A stretch of DNA of 64,000 nt from Escherichia phage EcWhh-1 (MH791409.1), one strand, 5' to 3'; shown: positions 213 to 25,186, numbered from the stretch's first letter. Translations and numbers: made by a program. The notes: generated by a model from the letters alone, not told the origin.

Positions 213-2033
213 TTATGACATCCAAGCCTTACGCAGCTGTGGGTCGTTTCCAAGGAGCATTTCGAACTGGTCTTTCCAATCTTCAGGTAATTGAACTACA
301 TCGAATTTAGGGTCTTGAATCATTCGACGGTATTCAGCCTTCTCAAGAGAACCGAGTCCTTTAATATAACGAATAGAATGCTTAGGTAGAGAGTCCTTAG
401 CTTTGGTATAACTAGGTACATCATAGAACCATTCCTGTTCTTTACCAACCTGAGCAATGATTACAGGAGTCTTACAGAAACGAATTCGTCCCTGTTCAAA
501 CAATTCCGGCCACTGACTAAAGAAAGCTAATAACGAAGGATAAATCGAACCAGTACCATCCACATCGGCGTCAGTCATGATAGCGATATTACGATAGTTG
601 GTTTTATCTGCAGGTTCACCAATAACCAGTCCAGTGATTGCACAGATATCAAACAATTCTTTGTTCTTCATGATATCGGCAGCAGTCATACCCCAGGTAT
701 TCATAACCTTTCCGCGTAACGGATAACCACCTTGGAGGTCTTTATTACGAACTTCAATGAAAGGACCCATTGCAGAATCACCTTCCGTAAGGAATAAAGT
801 CGTATCAGCATCTTTGCCATACATATTGGCTTTAATATGCTTATGGACCTTGGCTTTCAAAGCTTTCTTAGCAGCTTTTGTTTCGGCAGCCTTTTCAGCA
901 GCGAGCTTACGTGCTAATGCAGCCTCAATAATAGGCATCAACACAGCTTCATTAGCTAATATGGATTTAGCTAGTTTTTTAGAATCTAACTGAATATGCG
1001 AACGAATTTCACCATACGGCGATGTTAGACGTTCTTTAGTCTGGGAATCGAATCGCATATTTTTCATGCTTCGCACAAACATCAGCATCGTTAAACATTC
1101 TTTAATACGGGCTTTGGTTACTTCAATTTTAAACTTACGCTTAATTTGTGGGATAAGCTCGTCACAAATATCATCCATAACACATTCAACGTGGTGACCA
1201 CCGTTTTTAGTATGAATATTGTTCACGTACGTTAATTGTCGGAATCCATCAGGAGAGCGTCCTATAGATATCGAACAATTGTCCTGTTCTTGGATAATGC
1301 ACTCTTCGTCGAACTGTTTGGCGTATTTTTTAAACGACCCTTGGATTTTCTTACCATTAAATTTAAATTCAATATCAGGATAAATGACTGCTAAGGTTTG
1401 AAGTCGGTCAATGGTAATATCTTGATAAATTTTTTCAAATTGGTTCATTTCAAAGTGGCTAAAATCAGGTACAAATTCTACTTTGGTTCCATTAGTTTTA
1501 GATGGCTTTGATTTCCAAGAAACGTTTTCAGCGTTATTAGAGCAGTTAACAATAAGTTCAGATTTACCATCAGAAGTTGTGCCTGTAAACATCACAGAGA
1601 ATATATTTGTTAAACTGGAACCGACACCGTTTTGACCACCGGTAACACGTTCAGAGTCATCACCAAAGTTACCGCCTGCCTTGGTTTTTGTCCAAGCCGC
1701 GACGGGTCCTGGGATTTCTTCACCTTCAGGAGTAACCACTAGAGCTTGAGGAATACCACGGCCATTATCTTCTACAGTAACCTTATTAGAACTTAAATCA
1801 ATGCTTACTGAAATTTTGTTGGCAAACTTAAAATTAGTACGAATAGCTTCATCAACTGAGTTATCGATGATTTCATCAACTAATTTAAGAACACCCGCTA
1901 CATACCGTACTTTGGTAAACTCGCCGAAAAGAAATCGTTCATGGTCTTCAAATGATACACTTCCGATGTACATTCCAGGACGCTTAAGAACGTGTTCCTT
2001 ATCTGAAAGCATTTCAATTTTATTATCAATCAT
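213..2033 (-). CDS. 39: DNA topoisomerase II large (ATPase) subunit, un-split gene 39 form including the T4 gp60-equivalent C-terminus
   Basis: 606 aa; N-terminus MIDNKIEMLSDKEHVLKRPGMYIGS matches remembered T4 gp39; GyrB-like ATPase motifs; C-terminal IMTDADVDGTGSIYPSLL...WPELFEQGRIRF...IRYIKGLGSLE matches remembered T4 gp60; ATG start verified. Confidence 0.9.
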   Translation of the reverse strand: MIDNKIEMLSDKEHVLKRPGMYIGSVSFEDHERFLFGEFTKVRYVAGVLKLVDEIIDNSVDEAIRTNFKFANKISVSIDLSSNKVTVEDNGRGIPQALVVTPEGEEIPGPVAAWTKTKAGGNFGDDSERVTGGQNGVGSSLTNIFSVMFTGTTSDGKSELIVNCSNNAENVSWKSKPSKTNGTKVEFVPDFSHFEMNQFEKIYQDITIDRLQTLAVIYPDIEFKFNGKKIQGSFKKYAKQFDEECIIQEQDNCSISIGRSPDGFRQLTYVNNIHTKNGGHHVECVMDDICDELIPQIKRKFKIEVTKARIKECLTMLMFVRSMKNMRFDSQTKERLTSPYGEIRSHIQLDSKKLAKSILANEAVLMPIIEAALARKLAAEKAAETKAAKKALKAKVHKHIKANMYGKDADTTLFLTEGDSAMGPFIEVRNKDLQGGYPLRGKVMNTWGMTAADIMKNKELFDICAITGLVIGEPADKTNYRNIAIMTDADVDGTGSIYPSLLAFFSQWPELFEQGRIRFCKTPVIIAQVGKEQEWFYDVPSYTKAKDSLPKHSIRYIKGLGSLEKAEYRRMIQDPKFDVVQLPEDWKDQFEMLLGNDPQLRKAWMS

Positions 2034-2703
2034 TATGTTTTCTCTCGAATTGTTTTAAAATATTTTTATAGGACCCTTCAGGAAATCCACGTTTAATACT
2101 TTCTTTCATGAATTTAGCCAGTTTAGGTTTATCTAATTCTAACCATAAATCTTCTAAAGCGGATTCATATTCCCAAACAGGGCTTTTACGATTTTTAAGA
2201 CCGCATTTGATTAAGGCCTCGTCTGTATGTTTCTTACCAAAGAAAGGGTTGTTTTCTTTAGCCATTGCTTTGGAATGTTCAGGGCGTTTAATCCCATACA
2301 TAGGGTTAAGTTCACCTAATTTAAGGCCTGATTGGATTTTTATAGTTTCATGAGAATGATGTTTGTTAAAGAAAGGATTGTTTTCTTTACTAACGTCGGA
2401 GCCGAAAAATCCTTTAGGTGCTGCAGTTGCTCTATTAAAAAATAAATCAGATTTAGCCGCATTATTAAGGACTTGATACTTATACTCCGCTTTAGTAGCT
2501 TCTTCTCTTGTCTCGAATTCTTCAACTATCAAACTATCGAAAAGCTCAGGATGGGCAGCCAATTCAGACTTGTAAATCTCTTGGTACTTTTTAGATTTTA
2601 CGGAGCCGTGGTATCCGTTTAAATGTTTTTCTAGGCTAGTCGAACCTATATAAAATGGAGGTAATTTGTCTCCGGAATAAATCGTCAAGTAAACTATAAA
2701 CAT
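2026..2703 (-). CDS. GIY-YIG homing endonuclease, Seg-like, with NUMOD3-type repeats
   Basis: N-terminal IVYLTIYSG...FYIGST (GIY...YIG spacing); two repeats ENNPFF(N/G)KKH(S/T)...; ATG with AGGAGGA Shine-Dalgarno. Confidence 0.6.
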   Translation of the reverse strand: MFIVYLTIYSGDKLPPFYIGSTSLEKHLNGYHGSVKSKKYQEIYKSELAAHPELFDSLIVEEFETREEATKAEYKYQVLNNAAKSDLFFNRATAAPKGFFGSDVSKENNPFFNKHHSHETIKIQSGLKLGELNPMYGIKRPEHSKAMAKENNPFFGKKHTDEALIKCGLKNRKSPVWEYESALEDLWLELDKPKLAKFMKESIKRGFPEGSYKNILKQFERKHND

Positions 2704-12598: not shown

Positions 12599-13120
12599 TT
12601 AATAACCTCGGTCTTGACGAGCAAAGTTCTCGGCATTTTTCAGGTAATACAGTTTAAAGATTTCTTCAGCGGTCAGTCCAAGACCCTGGAACATATTCAG
12701 AACAAAGTGCAGAATATCAATCATTTCGAATTTAATTTCGAGCTGGTCTTCAGGAGACAAATCGTTAATCAGGGTTTCACGACGTTCAGCATGTTGAGCT
12801 TTCCAAGGCTTCCATACTGCAGATGCATCTTTTTCACCATTGCTCATACCACCAAGAGAAGTCAGAAGTTCACGGAATTCGTCATCAATATAATCTTTCT
12901 GGTTGCGAAGCCAATCGACAACTTCACCCGCAGTGGCCAAATCATCAGGATGACGATTATATTCAGGCTTATCTTTAGCTAAACGAACCTGCAAAGATTT
13001 CTGCATATCAAGCATAACCTGCAGAGGGTCTTTATCTTCGTGAATCAGAGCATTAAAATAAGCTTCTTCAGCTTTATCGGCACCGGCAATCAGTTGAGAA
13101 CATTCATTAAAATGAGCCAT
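12599..13120 (-). CDS. 56: dCTPase / dCTP pyrophosphatase (MazG-like)
   Basis: start moved to MAHFNEC (ATG verified); DPLQVMLDMQ...EFRELLTSLG...EIFKLYYLKNAENFARQDRGY closely matches remembered T4 gp56. Confidence 0.85.
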   Translation of the reverse strand: MAHFNECSQLIAGADKAEEAYFNALIHEDKDPLQVMLDMQKSLQVRLAKDKPEYNRHPDDLATAGEVVDWLRNQKDYIDDEFRELLTSLGGMSNGEKDASAVWKPWKAQHAERRETLINDLSPEDQLEIKFEMIDILHFVLNMFQGLGLTAEEIFKLYYLKNAENFARQDRGY

Positions 13121-19807: not shown

Positions 19808-20009
19808 TATATTTTTCCATAGGCATCATTATATTTTTCTCACGTTTTAAGATAGGGTAATTATATCACTTCACAGCTACAGCATTACTTAATTCCTCGG
19901 TTGATAGCCTTATCGACTATCTTCCGAACTTCTCGTTTCTCGAGCCACACTAATAATAGCAAGCCTCCGAAAGAGAATAATAACAAACCTATAAAAAGCA
20001 ATAGAGGAC

Positions 20010-20903
20010 CTAGCATACTACGTCCTCATAACGTGGCATTTCGTATTCAGAATGAATATTGGCACCGAAATAAATGAATTCAGCCAGACCAGGATGGAAT
20101 ACTAAACCTGGGTTCTCATGATAAATGATATGTGGTCTTGATTTCAGAATTTGATAATATTCAACCTTACTCGGTTTGAATTTAATAATCTCTACATCAG
20201 GACGATAGTCTTCGCGCTTAAATGAATCATTAGGGTCGGTGATATAAAGACGAGCACCTTCAGCGGCAGCTTGGTCTACAACTCTTTCGAATTGATAACA
20301 CTTATCCGAAATACGGAATGGATGGAAAATACCATCAATTTTAATAGGCGCTAGACCTTCAGAGTAACGCTCAATTACTGCAGGATTAATTACCTTTTGG
20401 TCTACAAAAATCTTATCAGAGGATGCACCTCGTGACATCAGGACGTCTTTCTGGCATTGATTCAAGACTGTAGTATAAAGTGAACGTTCAACTGAAGCCA
20501 CATCAATATCAATGAACTCGTCGATATAATAACGAGGAACTTCAGGGTCCATTGTGATATTAAAGTTGAATTGTACAGTATGAGCACCATCATAACCGGT
20601 GATATCGGTCACCAGTCCTGAGCAATCATAGTATTCGATTAGTGAATCGACTACAAACTCATTTTCAGACCAGAAATGTTTACGGGTTTCATAAGCATTT
20701 TCTTTATACCAAAGTGGTACGAAATTCAGTTCTGGGAATAATTCAATGCATTCTTTGATATCGCTCGAATTTCTAGGATAAGCCAGATAATCACCTGGAC
20801 GAGCACGATTTAAATGGAGTTGAAAATTACCGTCCTTAAGGACGGCATATTCACCTGTTTCGTAACTACGCATACTGAAAATAGGAACGATAAACAAACT
20901 CAT
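20010..20903 (-). CDS. unrecognised protein in the beta-glucosyltransferase slot; candidate hmC-modifying transferase
   Basis: 297 aa, no motif I can recognise; last gene of the coupled operon (ATGA overlap with the hydroxymethylase stop); occupies the uvsX-42 interval where T4 has beta-gt. Confidence 0.4.
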   Translation of the reverse strand: MSLFIVPIFSMRSYETGEYAVLKDGNFQLHLNRARPGDYLAYPRNSSDIKECIELFPELNFVPLWYKENAYETRKHFWSENEFVVDSLIEYYDCSGLVTDITGYDGAHTVQFNFNITMDPEVPRYYIDEFIDIDVASVERSLYTTVLNQCQKDVLMSRGASSDKIFVDQKVINPAVIERYSEGLAPIKIDGIFHPFRISDKCYQFERVVDQAAAEGARLYITDPNDSFKREDYRPDVEIIKFKPSKVEYYQILKSRPHIIYHENPGLVFHPGLAEFIYFGANIHSEYEMPRYEDVVC

Positions 20904-21598
20904 TTCAGGAAACCTCGGACGTAGTCAAAATCACGTTCAAACACGTGTGCACTTACCATGGTGTGGGAATATGTACCTAAACCGACACCACACTGTTCAG
21001 CAATAAATGCCATCAGTTTACCCTGCAGATAGAAATCCAGCTGCATAACAACGGCGCAGTTTTGTGAACGCATATGAGTGTGTGCATACAGACGTCCATC
21101 ACGAATATAATATGTTACCGAATCGGTACACGGATATTCTAGGGATTCGTCAGAATCAAGGAGGGCTTGGTCTTGTTCTTGGAGAATTTGGAACACAACT
21201 CGTCTCGAGTTAGGCTTTTCTTTAAGCTCTTTAAGTAGGGCTGGGAGTTGGGCCACAATTCGAGGGCCATAGAAAGTGTTGAAGTTTGCAGGCAATACGT
21301 CACTTTTCGGCTTATCAATGAACTTAGCAACATTAGGGTATTCCTTAAATGCTTCGGCAGCGTCAGTACCACCAGAAATCATAAATTTCCAAAAGGATTC
21401 GGCATATTCATAACTAATACGATTGATACGTGGGTCGGTGAATTTATAGGTGCTTGCATCCAGTACTTCTACCGAAGCAGAACCAATTTCATAACAACGT
21501 CCGATACGAGAATCAACTGCAAACTGTGGAGCTTCCAGGATTTCTTCGTTCATTTGTTTAAATGCATTTTCAAAACTAACAGCGGTAATGTGTTTCAT
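20900..21598 (-). CDS. 42: dCMP hydroxymethylase (thymidylate-synthase fold)
   Basis: 232 aa; PCTDSVTYYIRDGRLY...MRSQN......QLDFY aligns with thymidylate synthase PCHAFFQFYVADGKLS...YQRSCD......LPFNIAS; catalytic Cys conserved and Asp at the TS Asn177-equivalent position, the cytosine-specificity signature. Confidence 0.8.
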   Translation of the reverse strand: MKHITAVSFENAFKQMNEEILEAPQFAVDSRIGRCYEIGSASVEVLDASTYKFTDPRINRISYEYAESFWKFMISGGTDAAEAFKEYPNVAKFIDKPKSDVLPANFNTFYGPRIVAQLPALLKELKEKPNSRRVVFQILQEQDQALLDSDESLEYPCTDSVTYYIRDGRLYAHTHMRSQNCAVVMQLDFYLQGKLMAFIAEQCGVGLGTYSHTMVSAHVFERDFDYVRGFLK

Positions 21599-22131
21599 TT
21601 ATTCACCTTATTTTCAATATATTCGTTCAGACGTTTTAATTCTACCATATCAACATTAAGCAAATTATTATGGCCGTCATGATTTAAGATTTTAAACACG
21701 TTTTCAAAACATGTTTCGTATTGCCGGATAGTTAGGTTGAACTCATCTTTGGTTAATTTAATAAGGTCGTCTTCGAAGTCTTCGTCTAATGGATTGCGAG
21801 TTAAAATAACCTCGATAACGTTAAATTCGGATTTAAACCCTTTCCAATCTTCCAGTTCTACATAAGGGTCCATTTCACCACGAAGGAATCCTGAGTAAAC
21901 AATATTACTTGGATAACCACGGTCAAGGATATAAACGAAATTAGGGTCTAAAAACTTATACAGAGTTTCAACTAAAGCCTTATCGTTATCAGTTCCTAAT
22001 GAAATACACTTGCCATTAATCTTTTTAGGAAAATCAATAAGGCGGTATTTCTTATTGGATAACAGATTTTTAATTAAAGTGGACTTCCCGGAATTATCCG
22101 GGCCGTCTATAACAATGATTTTTGGATTCAT
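21595..22131 (-). CDS. P-loop nucleoside-monophosphate-kinase-like protein
   Basis: 178 aa; IVIDGPDNSGKSTL Walker A resembling thymidylate/dNMP kinases; ATGA-coupled on both sides within the operon. Confidence 0.55.
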   Translation of the reverse strand: MNPKIIVIDGPDNSGKSTLIKNLLSNKKYRLIDFPKKINGKCISLGTDNDKALVETLYKFLDPNFVYILDRGYPSNIVYSGFLRGEMDPYVELEDWKGFKSEFNVIEVILTRNPLDEDFEDDLIKLTKDEFNLTIRQYETCFENVFKILNHDGHNNLLNVDMVELKRLNEYIENKVNK

Positions 22132-22526
22132 GGATGATAGGCCTTATAACTATCAAGAGTTCCTTCACGAACCATTTCTTTAAAGTGGTCAGGACGGATT
22201 GCTCGGTCATCGATGATAAAAGTATAACTCGGCTTATGCGTAAGCAGATTATGATATTTCAATCCAATCTTTTCAAGGTTCTTAACCAATGCAGGAACTA
22301 CTTCAACCAAGATTCGACCTGGGCCACATGAAGTCATGCCACGGGCAGTGAATAATGTAATCTCGTACCCTTCATCATAAAGCTTATTAATCATGGACAC
22401 CATTTCGGTGTCCGGTTTAAAGTTCTCATAATCACGGTCATGGTTCCAAATCGTGATTGTGTTATCGATATCAAAACATAAATGTGGCTTATTTTCTACT
22501 CGATGCGACATTAAATTTTCTTCCAT
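22128..22526 (-). CDS. HAD-superfamily phosphatase-like protein
   Basis: 132 aa; CFDIDNTIT (DxDxT motif I), LFTAR (motif II Thr); start may be the second ATG at 22511, which overlaps the upstream stop as TAATG. Confidence 0.5.
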   Translation of the reverse strand: MEENLMSHRVENKPHLCFDIDNTITIWNHDRDYENFKPDTEMVSMINKLYDEGYEITLFTARGMTSCGPGRILVEVVPALVKNLEKIGLKYHNLLTHKPSYTFIIDDRAIRPDHFKEMVREGTLDSYKAYHP

Positions 22527-24184
22527 TGTTTGTGGAGTTCAGTAGAACCTGTAGGTTTATATTTTACACCAGTTTCCTGGTCAAGCAAAACCCACTTATC
22601 AGGACAACGAGTAATAATTTGAGCCGTGATAGGGTCACGAACTTCATCGACAAATTCACCAGTAATAAGCTTACGCTTATGAGGATGCCGCTTCAGCAGC
22701 ACACTCAGTTGATACAAACCGTTATAATAAGCACCCAGAGCTTTCAGAGGGTTATTCTTAAAGTAACCTGCCAGCGCCATCCAAATAACAGCAATCCAGA
22801 GCTTGTGCTTAAATGTGCACATAGGAATATCGTCTAAAGGCATAACCTTTTCGATATCAACGAATACACGAGTTCCGTTACGAGTTAATCCACCCCATAG
22901 AGGGTCTGAGTTAAATTTGTCATAGCCATCGATAGAATAAAGCACCTTAGCTTCATCATAAATCGCAGGGCCTTTAGAACTATTACCGAAATAACCACGT
23001 GGGTCGATGATTTTAATATCACCTTCGTCCGACAGCATAATATTACTGTAGTGCGGGTCGCCATGAATAAGTTGGTACGGTTCTTTATGTTCAGACAGAA
23101 TTTCTAGTGCATGGCGGAGAAGTTTTTCGGGGTCGCCTACTTTGAAATCGTTAACATAGGTAATGCCCTGTGGAGCAAAGCCTTCAATCAATCCGGCAAT
23201 AGAAGCATTACGAATAAGGACCTTGTCCAACACTTCTTTCTTAACATCGGAATACCATTGCTCATCGGACGGGTTATCGATAGTTCCACCGAATGAACGT
23301 AATGCACTAATGACCTTATAAACCATGAGGACTTTAGTTTCTTTGGACATAAACCGGTAGGCATCTGCCATGGTACGACCAAAGATACGTTCCATTTTAA
23401 TGAATTCGCCTGGAGAAAAGTCTACAATGCTAGGAACGAATTCAGAATCAATAGAATTATACCAATTGATTTCTTTAGATTGAATTTCTTTACCTAATTC
23501 GTTAGTTGGTACTTTAATAGCCAGATTCTCGGTGAACTCTAATTTATTAAATTCACGGTTAATTTCAGAATCTTCATGGGCCTTGGCAAGTTTCAATTTG
23601 TCACCGACATCAACTACAAAATCCAGTTTACGTTCAGTCAAATAGACCATTGAATCCAGGTTATCAGCAAGGTCTTCGCCATAATTAGAACGGTCGAAAC
23701 CTGTCCAATTGGCTACCTGATACAAACCAACTACACCGCCACCGGTACCAATTTCACGTAAGTACGGTTCTTCAAATGTAAAGCGACAGTCAGTTCCATA
23801 GGTATAACAATAGTCGTTACCCCATTCAACTTTATGACCGATAGGAATGATGTCACACCAGTTAAACAGGACATTATGGCCAATGATATCTTCGGCAATG
23901 CAATCGATAGCATGAGCTGAACCATTAGCAACATCAACGTTACGAATAGTGAATTTAGGCTTATCACCAGTAATCATGTTAATGGATTTAATATAGCCTT
24001 TAACGAGGTCGTTAAATTTGCTGTGAATAACCAGAATAATTTCATCTGATTGGTTACTATACAAATCATACAAATGTTTTAATACCGTATGTTGTTTGTA
24101 GTTAACCAATACCTTTGGGATTTCGTTAGTAATTGGATACAACCGTGAGCCAAGACCTGCGCCTAAAATAACAACCTTTTTCAT
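22511..24184 (-). CDS. bifunctional sugar-1-phosphate nucleotidyltransferase (N-terminal) / APH-ChoK-type sugar kinase (C-terminal)
   Basis: start moved to MKKVVILGAGLGSRLYPIT... (GxGxR nucleotidyltransferase signature); C-terminal HGDPHYSNIML...IKIIDPRGYFG (Brenner HGDxxxxN plus DxxG kinase motifs); ATG with GAGGAA Shine-Dalgarno. Confidence 0.6.
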   Translation of the reverse strand: MKKVVILGAGLGSRLYPITNEIPKVLVNYKQHTVLKHLYDLYSNQSDEIILVIHSKFNDLVKGYIKSINMITGDKPKFTIRNVDVANGSAHAIDCIAEDIIGHNVLFNWCDIIPIGHKVEWGNDYCYTYGTDCRFTFEEPYLREIGTGGGVVGLYQVANWTGFDRSNYGEDLADNLDSMVYLTERKLDFVVDVGDKLKLAKAHEDSEINREFNKLEFTENLAIKVPTNELGKEIQSKEINWYNSIDSEFVPSIVDFSPGEFIKMERIFGRTMADAYRFMSKETKVLMVYKVISALRSFGGTIDNPSDEQWYSDVKKEVLDKVLIRNASIAGLIEGFAPQGITYVNDFKVGDPEKLLRHALEILSEHKEPYQLIHGDPHYSNIMLSDEGDIKIIDPRGYFGNSSKGPAIYDEAKVLYSIDGYDKFNSDPLWGGLTRNGTRVFVDIEKVMPLDDIPMCTFKHKLWIAVIWMALAGYFKNNPLKALGAYYNGLYQLSVLLKRHPHKRKLITGEFVDEVRDPITAQIITRCPDKWVLLDQETGVKYKPTGSTELHKQWKKI

Positions 24185-24244
24185 TATCTGTTCCTCAAGT
24201 GAATGTAGGTACATTATACACTATTTTTAATAAATTTCTATTGC

Positions 24245-24745
24245 TTAAATCTTATCTTTACCGTATTCCATGCACTGTTCTACTGCAGCAGGCACTTTGG
24301 TCTTAAGCTTGTTGATTTGTTTCTTATAATCACGAGCCTTATCGAAGCTCTCGGTTTCGAGCATTTCGTAATAACGAGCCTCGTGGACAGAAATCTGTAG
24401 ATTGATATGGTTTACACACATGGCATACAGTTTCTGCTTTTTGTACAAATCATCTTGGCGCTTCATTTCTGCCTGGTGTTTGGCTAGTACCGCTTCACGC
24501 TTAGACTCTTGTTCACGTTGGAATTCGATTTCCCTTTGAGCATATTTTGCACAGTTATTACCACATTGATTATTAGCTCGGGTGTACACAAGTCCAGAAC
24601 CGGCACGGAATTTCATTTCGCCGTCGAATTGTTTCTGTTCAGCTGCGATACGAGCTTTACCAACTTCATCAGCAGAAACTGCATCACCGTATTGGACTGC
24701 GCAACCTGATAGGAGCATACTCATTGCGATAATTAACTTTTTCAT
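24245..24745 (-). CDS. lipoprotein with coiled-coil region
   Basis: MKKLIIAMSMLLSGCAVQ (lipobox LSGC); K/E/Q-rich heptads. Confidence 0.5.
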   Translation of the reverse strand: MKKLIIAMSMLLSGCAVQYGDAVSADEVGKARIAAEQKQFDGEMKFRAGSGLVYTRANNQCGNNCAKYAQREIEFQREQESKREAVLAKHQAEMKRQDDLYKKQKLYAMCVNHINLQISVHEARYYEMLETESFDKARDYKKQINKLKTKVPAAVEQCMEYGKDKI

Positions 24746-24886
24746 AATATCCTCAATTAAAACAGTTATACTTAATTTGTGCTATAAGAATAATCCATCC
24801 CATGATTAATGTTGGAATCATTGGAGGAATTGCCACTGCCCAATAAACGGTAAAGGCAGCCATTATAAGAAATAAAATAATTATCT

Positions 24887-25123
24887 TCATTGTTTAACGA
24901 TAATGATTTGTGCGTTTGATTTATGTTCAGCGACTATAGCCCAGATTAAAGCCACTACCCAACCAATCATCGTCCACCCTAACAGGAGATTAAGGAAGAA
25001 GATTCCGACATTGCTACGAGTGCCTCGCAGAAGGGCCAGAATCCATGGTAAAAAGTAACCAATGAACATAATAACCAGAGAACCGAATCCTAAAACACCA
25101 GCACTAACGATTAAAGCTTCCAT
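24887..25123 (-). CDS. imm: superinfection immunity protein Imm-like membrane protein
   Basis: start moved to MEALIVSAGVLG (ATG with GAGGAA Shine-Dalgarno); two TM helices with FLPWILALL...GWTMIGWVVALIWA; sits between 42 and 43 as in T4. Confidence 0.5.
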   Translation of the reverse strand: MEALIVSAGVLGFGSLVIMFIGYFLPWILALLRGTRSNVGIFFLNLLLGWTMIGWVVALIWAIVAEHKSNAQIIIVKQ

Positions 25124-25154
25124 TGTAATTTCCTCTAAGTAGTTGATAGGAAGG

Positions 25155-25184
25155 ATACTACCACGTTCCTTGTGGTATGTAAAC
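25155..25184 (-). promoter_or_regulatory. early-type promoter (GTTTAC, 18 nt, TAGTAT)
   Basis: minus strand GTTTACATACCACAAGGAACGTGGTAGTATCCTTCCTATCAAC. Confidence 0.4.
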
Positions 25185-25186
25185 AC

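Follow-up and report, generated by a model that had tools for sequence, protein, structure and literature searches.

What does a T4-like phage do with its cytosine when the place of beta-gt is taken by other genes? The T4 gene order is uvsX-segA-beta-gt-42-imm-43, whereas in Escherichia phage EcWhh-1 (MH791409.1) an operon of five minus-strand genes stands between uvsX and imm/gene 43, at positions 20010-24214 of the 64,000-nucleotide stretch analyzed here (the window). A sequence-only reading of this stretch had taken the operon for a phage-encoded nucleoside diphosphate (NDP)-sugar pathway serving a non-glucose modification of 5-hydroxymethylcytosine (hmC). Our analysis makes it probable that the five genes form the minimal core of the system by which T4-like phages hypermodify their DNA with arabinosyl-5-hydroxycytosine.

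This system has already been described in the literature (2025-2026), for Dhakavirus too by comparative genomics; the Dhakaviruses are named among the genera possessing a syntenic cluster (Lee et al., NAR 2026, PMC13326640). Phage DNA that carries arabinosyl-5-hydroxycytosine is guarded against restriction enzymes, against DNA glycosylases and against some CRISPR (clustered regularly interspaced short palindromic repeats) systems, and the chemistry of the pathway is unexpected, a thymidylate synthase (TS) fold having been turned into a flavin hydroxylase. The window adds a clean example of the smallest version, with five genes, one transferase, no isomerase and no protein of the U32 family.

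Gene organization

The five consecutive open reading frames (ORFs) are found exactly where the sequence-only reading placed them: 20010-20903 (297 amino acids, aa), 20900-21598 (232 aa), 21595-22131 (178 aa), 22128-22526 (132 aa) and 22511-24214 (567 aa). The longest encodes a fusion protein, whose stop codon forms a TAATG junction with the ATG (22511) of the gene for a HAD phosphatase; the other three junctions are ATGA. All of the motifs named in that reading occur in their respective proteins, namely LGAGLGSR, HGDPHYSN and IIDPRG in the fusion protein, FDIDNT (DxDxT) in the HAD protein, GPDNSGKST in the P-loop kinase, and Asp at the position of ThyA Asn177 in the TS homolog. PHROG matches (E 1e-39 to 1e-267) and orthologs in 350-370 phage genomes indicate that all five are real genes. 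The fusion protein probably starts at ATG 24184 rather than at the longest-ORF codon 24214, because a GAGGA ribosome-binding site is present, RB69 gp53 is aligned from residue 1, and a TATAAT box overlaps ATG 24214. Similarly, the match to the N-terminus of RB69 gp51 suggests that the HAD protein probably begins at ATG 22511, and not at the start of the longest ORF.

The overlapping starts and stops had been offered as an argument for shared function. This is weak evidence, since overlapping junctions are common in such a genome: 20 of 56 (36%) overlap in the first 36 kb of phage JS98, where other runs of four to five exist. The case for shared function therefore rests on homology. All five proteins have orthologs in the RB69 (Mosigvirus) cluster (gp45-gp55 plus gp3), with 38-80% identity and in the same uvsX-to-gene-43 slot, which bears out the connection to RB69 that had been raised as a possibility.

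The window belongs to the genus Dhakavirus (Tevenvirinae), and so do its nearest matches: over this region, identity reaches 99.5% with Escherichia phage UP19, 99.2% with IME281, and 98% with both JS98 and JS10. The JS98 annotation of 2007 noted orf38-42 as resembling RB69 ORFs 047c, 048c, 045c, 051c and 052c. Elsewhere in GenBank/RefSeq the orthologs are named thymidylate synthase, dCMP hydroxymethylase, phosphoheptose isomerase, capsule biosynthesis protein, nucleotide-sugar epimerase or RNA polymerase binding protein. These annotations are misleading, and none reflects the published functions.

A predicted cytosine hydroxylase in the place of gene 42

The TS homolog (20900-21598, minus strand) is the ortholog of RB69 gp48 and occupies the place of T4 gene 42. 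It is 80% identical to gp48 and only 25% to T4 gp42, and matches the hydroxylase structures 9iqu/9iqc in the PDB with an E-value of 1e-126. Alignment with E. coli ThyA, T4 gp42 and RB69 gp48 reveals that Cys146 is kept, and that the protein carries the replacements L143E, D169N and N177D; T4 gp42 retains Asp169. A diagnostic feature of the hydroxylases is Asn at position 169 instead of Asp (numbering of E. coli ThyA), a criterion validated on nine diverse enzymes (PMC13326640). RB69 gp48 converts deoxycytidine monophosphate (dCMP) to 5-hydroxy-dCMP, taking the oxygen from O2, as seen by 18O2 labelling, and carrying a bound flavin (Lee et al., NAR 2026, PMC13326640). We thus predict that the EcWhh-1 protein is a 5-hydroxy-dCMP synthase, that is, a TS-superfamily, flavin/O2-dependent cytosine C5 hydroxylase.

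The product of this reaction is phosphorylated by the T4-type deoxynucleoside monophosphate (dNMP) kinase, gp1, and in RB69 and Acinetobacter phage DLP3 cytosine is replaced by mono- and poly-arabinosylated 5-hydroxycytosine, in which an ether oxygen, and not a hydroxymethyl group, links C5 to the sugar (PMC13326640). An independent study of Mosigvirus NP confirmed the revised structure and called the 2018 assignment of arabinosyl-hmC erroneous.

A further step is encoded outside the operon, at 12602-13120 (minus strand), where the window has a gene 56 homolog specifying a deoxycytidine triphosphatase (dCTPase) 91% identical to RB69 gp28. The T4 gene 56 enzyme supplies dCMP and removes dCTP. 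Both this enzyme and the active-site signature of the hydroxylase are common to EcWhh-1 and RB69, and dCTPase is listed as an associated step of the pathway (PMC13326640 Table 1).

Absences were assessed by tblastn against the window and the whole JS98 genome. A conventional alpha-gt or beta-gt elsewhere, which the sequence-only reading would have counted against its proposal, was not found; neither T4 gene gave a significant match. As that reading had also stated, the operon fills the beta-gt slot and nothing resembling alpha-gt lies between genes 47 and 55: only about 72 nucleotides are left at the alpha-gt position, between the 47.1 and a-gt.2 homologs. No gp42 of the T4 type (Asp169) was detected, the sole gp42-like sequence being the 25%-identical one with Asn169, and the only other TS-family gene is td. 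RB69 gp3 (the second arabinosyltransferase), gp49 and gp50 (U32 family) were likewise without a match, and no glycosyltransferase domain was recognized in the window's other large unknown ORFs.

Activation of the sugar

The fusion gene (22511-24184, minus strand) specifies an N-terminal sugar-1-phosphate nucleotidyltransferase (Pfam NTP_transferase, residues 13-110) joined to a C-terminal APH-type sugar kinase (APH, residues 356-427). It is the ortholog of RB69 gp53+gp52, to which it is 44% and 41% identical, respectively, and colinear over its full length, as well as of AfhE in the Afh system of phage HY126 (He et al., Nat Chem Biol 2026); it matches phrog_4098 with an E-value of 1e-267. The arrangement recalls the AmgK-MurU salvage pathway, in which an APH-fold anomeric sugar kinase is paired with a MurU-like nucleotidyltransferase. 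Weak matches to MurU models were obtained with the fusion protein, and the N-terminal domain of the RB69 enzyme (the gp53 part) matches MurU 4y7t (PMC13326640). Three things would set the phage system apart from AmgK-MurU: its two enzymes are joined in one protein, it starts from a pentose-5-phosphate, and between the two reactions a phosphatase acts.

That phosphatase is the HAD protein (22128-22511, minus strand), a sugar-phosphate phosphatase with the DxDxT motif, orthologous to RB69 gp51 (62% identity) and to HY126 AfhF. It matches PDB 9iqw (E 7e-54) and, at 54 bits, the NCBIfam model for capsule-biosynthesis phosphatases, TIGR01689. The PDB entries for the HY126 system, 9iqu/9iqc (hydroxylase) and 9iqw (phosphatase), are close homologs of the corresponding EcWhh-1 proteins. 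According to the summary of the HY126 work in PMC13326640 (section 27 for the function of AfhE), AfhE converts arabinose-5-phosphate to arabinose-1,5-bisphosphate, the Mg-dependent phosphatase AfhF takes off the 5-phosphate, and AfhE then uridylylates the product to give uridine diphosphate (UDP)-arabinofuranose. Orthology to these enzymes and to those of RB69 upholds the idea of a phage-made NDP-sugar assembled by a kinase, a phosphatase and a nucleotidyltransferase. The order that the sequence-only reading gave them, with the phosphatase acting ahead of the anomeric kinase, has to be changed to kinase, phosphatase and uridylylation, as summarized for HY126.

Homologs of the fusion protein occur in 367 phage records, of the 297-aa transferase in 352, of the arabinose-5-phosphate isomerase (RB69 gp55) in 276 and of the U32 protein in 222, so that about 90 fusion-bearing records are without the isomerase. 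A phage isomerase is thus not universal to this type of cluster, and the versions lacking the isomerase and the U32 protein are a regular variant. E. coli makes arabinose-5-phosphate constitutively for the synthesis of Kdo (3-deoxy-D-manno-octulosonic acid).

Both the fusion gene and the 297-aa transferase gene are intact single ORFs in the window and are colinear with pairs of RB69 genes, gp53+gp52 (RB69 28094-29780) and gp47+gp46 (24597-25497), respectively. The window ORFs independently support the view that the split gp46/gp47 and gp52/gp53 of the RB69 reference record are sequencing errors.

The glycosyltransferase and the extra kinase

The 297-aa protein (20010-20903, minus strand), the ortholog of RB69 gp47+gp46, has a GT-B fold and is predicted to be the first (base-proximal) arabinosyltransferase. 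It is 65-69% identical to its RB69 counterparts and has no Pfam match. The sequence-only reading had made it the candidate transferase onto hmC-DNA; its role as a transferase stands, while the base to be modified would be 5-hydroxycytosine.

The remaining protein, a thymidylate-kinase-like P-loop nucleotide kinase of 178 aa (21595-22131, minus strand), is orthologous to RB69 gp45. Its substrate is probably 5-hydroxy-dCMP or a glycosylated form of it. Only nine kinase homologs were retrieved by the word-indexed search, and the structure model (predicted local distance difference test score 86) thus rests on a shallow alignment. Together with the hydroxylase and the first transferase, the kinase makes up a triad that is conserved among their homologs, usually with an overlap between the kinase and transferase genes, as seen in RB69, Shewanella phage Thanatos and three jumbo-phage contigs. 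The same adjacent triad, comprising a nucleotide kinase, a first glycosyltransferase and a D169N hydroxylase, is present in the hexosyl-5-hydroxycytosine cluster of Rhizobium phage RL38J1, which differs in that its sugars are galactose and glucose and that a UDP-galactopyranose mutase stands in for the arabinose route.

Three contigs from large phages (L009 5426-8576, L012 4739-7594 and L013 4793-7615) contain an island of a Flavodoxin_2 protein, a D169N TS homolog (MRSQN), a transferase homolog and a thymidylate-kinase-like protein. It lies in opposite orientation within the tail-gene region, with no sugar-activation genes nearby. The island looks like a compact 5-hydroxycytosine glycosylation module equipped with its own flavin reductase, and presumably draws on a host NDP-sugar.

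Since the kinase travels with the hydroxylase and the transferase, also in RL38J1 and in contigs devoid of sugar-activation genes, its gene partners place it on the nucleotide side of the pathway, and not on the sugar side. The simplest reading is that it is a module-autonomous 5-hydroxy-dCMP kinase. We also considered a role as UTP regenerator, and an action on DNA like that of the 5-hydroxymethyluracil DNA kinases. Both lack support: the thymidylate-kinase motifs and fold are kept, and the companions of the gene are those of the hydroxylase and the transferase, not the genes for the sugar steps.

A more radical order of events is conceivable, in which the acidic 297-aa enzyme arabinosylates 5-hydroxy-dCMP, the kinase handles arabinosyl-5-hydroxy-dCMP, and the polymerase incorporates a nucleotide that is already glycosylated. 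It is mildly favored by the conserved triad and its kinase-transferase overlap, which persist even where no sugar-activation genes are nearby, and by the fact that T4-like phages already possess gp1, which acts on 5-hydroxy-dCMP; the bulky arabinosyl-5-hydroxy-dCMP may be one that a T4-type gp1 kinase is unable to accept. It is also in keeping with the acidic nature of the transferase family (median isoelectric point 5.2, versus 9.05 for T4 beta-gt), and with the inactivity of the purified transferases on 5-hydroxycytosine DNA, the level at which the first arabosylation takes place being given as undetermined by the authors (PMC13326640). All this is far from proof, and we hold the idea as a speculative one with a low chance of being correct.

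Proposed pathway

In the pathway that we propose, the gene 56 dCTPase would make dCMP, which the TS homolog would hydroxylate at C5 with flavin and O2. The resulting 5-hydroxy-dCMP would be raised to the triphosphate by a T4-type gp1, encoded elsewhere in the genome, and/or by the thymidylate-kinase-like protein of the operon, together with the host NDP kinase, and the phage polymerase would insert 5-hydroxy-dCTP instead of dCTP. Sugar synthesis would start from host arabinose-5-phosphate, furnished by KdsD/GutQ. The C-terminal kinase domain of the fusion protein would phosphorylate it at C1, the HAD phosphatase would take off the 5-phosphate, and the N-terminal nucleotidyltransferase domain would form UDP-arabinofuranose, from which the 297-aa GT-B enzyme would move arabinose onto the 5-hydroxyl. 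With a single glycosyltransferase the predicted product is mono-arabinosyl-5-hydroxycytosine, a modification that would make the DNA resistant to restriction and CRISPR nucleases. Thanatos, having one transferase of this family, is reported to be mono-arabinosylated (PMC13326640).

This proposal draws upon the orthology of all five proteins to RB69 gp45, gp46:47, gp48, gp51 and gp52:53; upon the D169N/N177D/Cys146 signature and the close structures 9iqu/9iqc and 9iqw; upon the pathway biochemistry of RB69, DLP3 and HY126 together with the naming of Dhakaviruses as carriers of the syntenic cluster; and upon the lack of gp42, alpha-gt, beta-gt and RB69 gp3, gp50 and gp55 homologs in the window and JS98. 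The hydroxylase activity, the action of gp1-type kinase on 5-hydroxy-dCMP and the AfhE/AfhF steps are experimental results from relatives, from which we infer the activities of all the enzymes in EcWhh-1. Also predicted are the host source of the arabinose-5-phosphate, the attachment of a single arabinose, what the first transferase acts upon and what the extra kinase does.

Several points weigh against the proposal. In no phage has the first transferase been shown to be active in vitro on 5-hydroxycytosine DNA, and our literature search turned up no study of Dhakavirus virion DNA. RB69 gp55, the arabinose-5-phosphate isomerase, has no tblastn match in the window or the JS98 genome, and the fusion protein, being only 41-44% identical to its RB69 counterparts, does not prove the sugar specificity. 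A divergent second glycosyltransferase could escape sequence searches, just as the 297-aa enzyme itself has no Pfam match, and the genome-wide absences pertain to JS98, which is 98% identical in the operon, rather than to the full genome from which the window comes.

Could another sugar be used? Were the fusion protein to accept a different host pentose-5-phosphate, such as ribose-5-phosphate, the same architecture would yield a different pentosyl-5-hydroxycytosine. The lack of an isomerase here and in some 90 phage records that have the fusion protein would fit, as would the modest identity of the fusion protein. The authors of the Thanatos study were unable to assign the pentose, and the UDP-xylose pyrophosphorylase activity that they reported in vitro is that of TH1_063, a 300-aa homolog of the 297-aa protein, and not of the fusion, TH1_060. 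We nevertheless consider another pentose unlikely, given the constitutive supply of arabinose-5-phosphate in E. coli, which is established knowledge, and the closeness of the phosphatase and transferase to those of RB69. Thanatos, moreover, is given as mono-arabinosylated in PMC13326640.

The original idea of an hmC glycoside, with a T4-like dCMP hydroxymethylase and arabinose or another sugar on hmC, drew on the TS fold and the Asp at the Asn177 position, and the 2018 report had described RB69 DNA as arabinosyl-hmC. The Asp does point to cytosine specificity. Hydroxymethylation, however, is contradicted by Asn at position 169, where T4 gp42 has Asp, and by the high identity to an enzyme that was shown, by oxygen labelling and its bound flavin, to make 5-hydroxy-dCMP; the RB69 modification itself has been corrected by two groups to an ether-linked 5-hydroxycytosine glycoside. 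An hmC base is accordingly very improbable. Still harder to credit is a role apart from DNA modification, in capsule or lipopolysaccharide sugar metabolism or in choline or aminoglycoside phosphorylation. It is suggested by weak hits to the families of capsule phosphatase, APH and fructosamine kinase, and by public names such as "capsule biosynthesis protein" and "phosphoheptose isomerase"; but the gene 42/beta-gt slot also holds, next to these genes, one for a dCMP-modifying enzyme, more than 350 phage genomes contain them together with it, and their orthologs, according to the summary cited above, were reconstituted as a UDP-arabinose route for DNA modification.

Comparison with related systems

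The arabinosyl-5-hydroxycytosine system proposed for EcWhh-1 resembles the glucosyl-hmC system of T4 in its slot and its logic: both combine a TS-family enzyme that modifies dCMP with a dCTPase that keeps dCTP out and a GT-B enzyme that attaches the sugar. They differ in that hydroxylation with flavin and O2 replaces the folate-dependent hydroxymethylation of T4, that the link at C5 is predicted to be an ether, and that the sugar donor is phage-made whereas T4 takes UDP-glucose from its host; at the sequence level no alpha-gt or beta-gt homolog is present. RB69 additionally has the isomerase gp55, the U32 protein gp50, gp49 and a second transferase, gp3, for di-arabinosylation, none of which is found here. 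In EcWhh-1 the kinase gene is located between those of the phosphatase and hydroxylase, while in RB69 it follows the transferase gene. DLP3, unlike EcWhh-1, possesses a phage isomerase.

The closest experimentally studied case with one transferase is Thanatos, whose cytosine is mono-pentosylated. Its single transferase is 52% identical to the 297-aa protein and is accompanied by the same fusion, phosphatase, hydroxylase and kinase; differences are the presence of a U32 protein (79% identical to RB69 gp50) and the position of the kinase gene after the transferase gene. The Dhakavirus gene set is exactly the five genes common to RB69, DLP3 and Thanatos. Dhakaviruses are therefore a convenient system in which to ask whether these genes are sufficient, whether host arabinose-5-phosphate feeds the pathway, and what part the conserved extra kinase plays.

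RB69 gp50 (26492-27661), absent from the window and from Dhakaviruses, is a member of Peptidase_U32 (42 bits, with a weak match to UbiU). Hydroxylases that depend on prephenate and not on oxygen are found in this family, namely RlhA (5-hydroxycytidine in 23S rRNA), TrhP (5-hydroxyuridine in tRNA) and UbiU/V. The protein is unusually conserved, as the RB69-Thanatos identity attests. In the phage collection its homologs occur in phages of facultative anaerobes and are not listed among Acinetobacter phages. In another contig (L011, 7049-8125) a 51%-identical homolog follows the kinase and first-transferase homologs, with no TS homolog within 6 kb. The protein has been called a "sugar or heterocycle reductase", without mention of U32, RlhA or TrhP (PMC13326640); gp50 may be an anaerobic route to 5-hydroxycytosine.

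Neighboring features

Directly upstream of the operon is the best promoter-like site of the region, a sigma-70-like TAGAAA-16-TATAAT (24213-24240, minus strand) matching at 10 of 12 positions. Such matches are no more numerous in the region than shuffled sequence would give, which makes the site weak evidence. The scan of the region for promoters and terminators found no terminator after the operon.

An unannotated ORF at 19885-20016 (minus strand) specifies a hydrophobic peptide of 43 aa, MLGPLLLFIGLLLFSFGGLLLLVWLEKREVRKIVDKAINRGIK. Its start codon overlaps the stop codon, TAG, of the 297-aa gene (ATGCTAG), which makes it a candidate for a sixth coupled gene. The peptide is identical at 42 of 43 positions in JS98, and about 21 records, all of them Dhakavirus, are the only ones to contain its DNA. 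Between imm and the operon (24245-24745, minus strand) lies a gene for a predicted lipoprotein of 166 aa, with a signal peptide ending in LSGC; it belongs to phrog_1754, of unknown function, and is positioned approximately where RB69 has the arabinose-5-phosphate isomerase. Far from the operon, at 2026-2703 (minus strand), a 225-aa homing endonuclease with GIY-YIG and NUMOD3 domains adjoins topoisomerase gene 39. No alignment with JS98 was obtained for this part of the window, which is therefore likely to be a mobile insertion.

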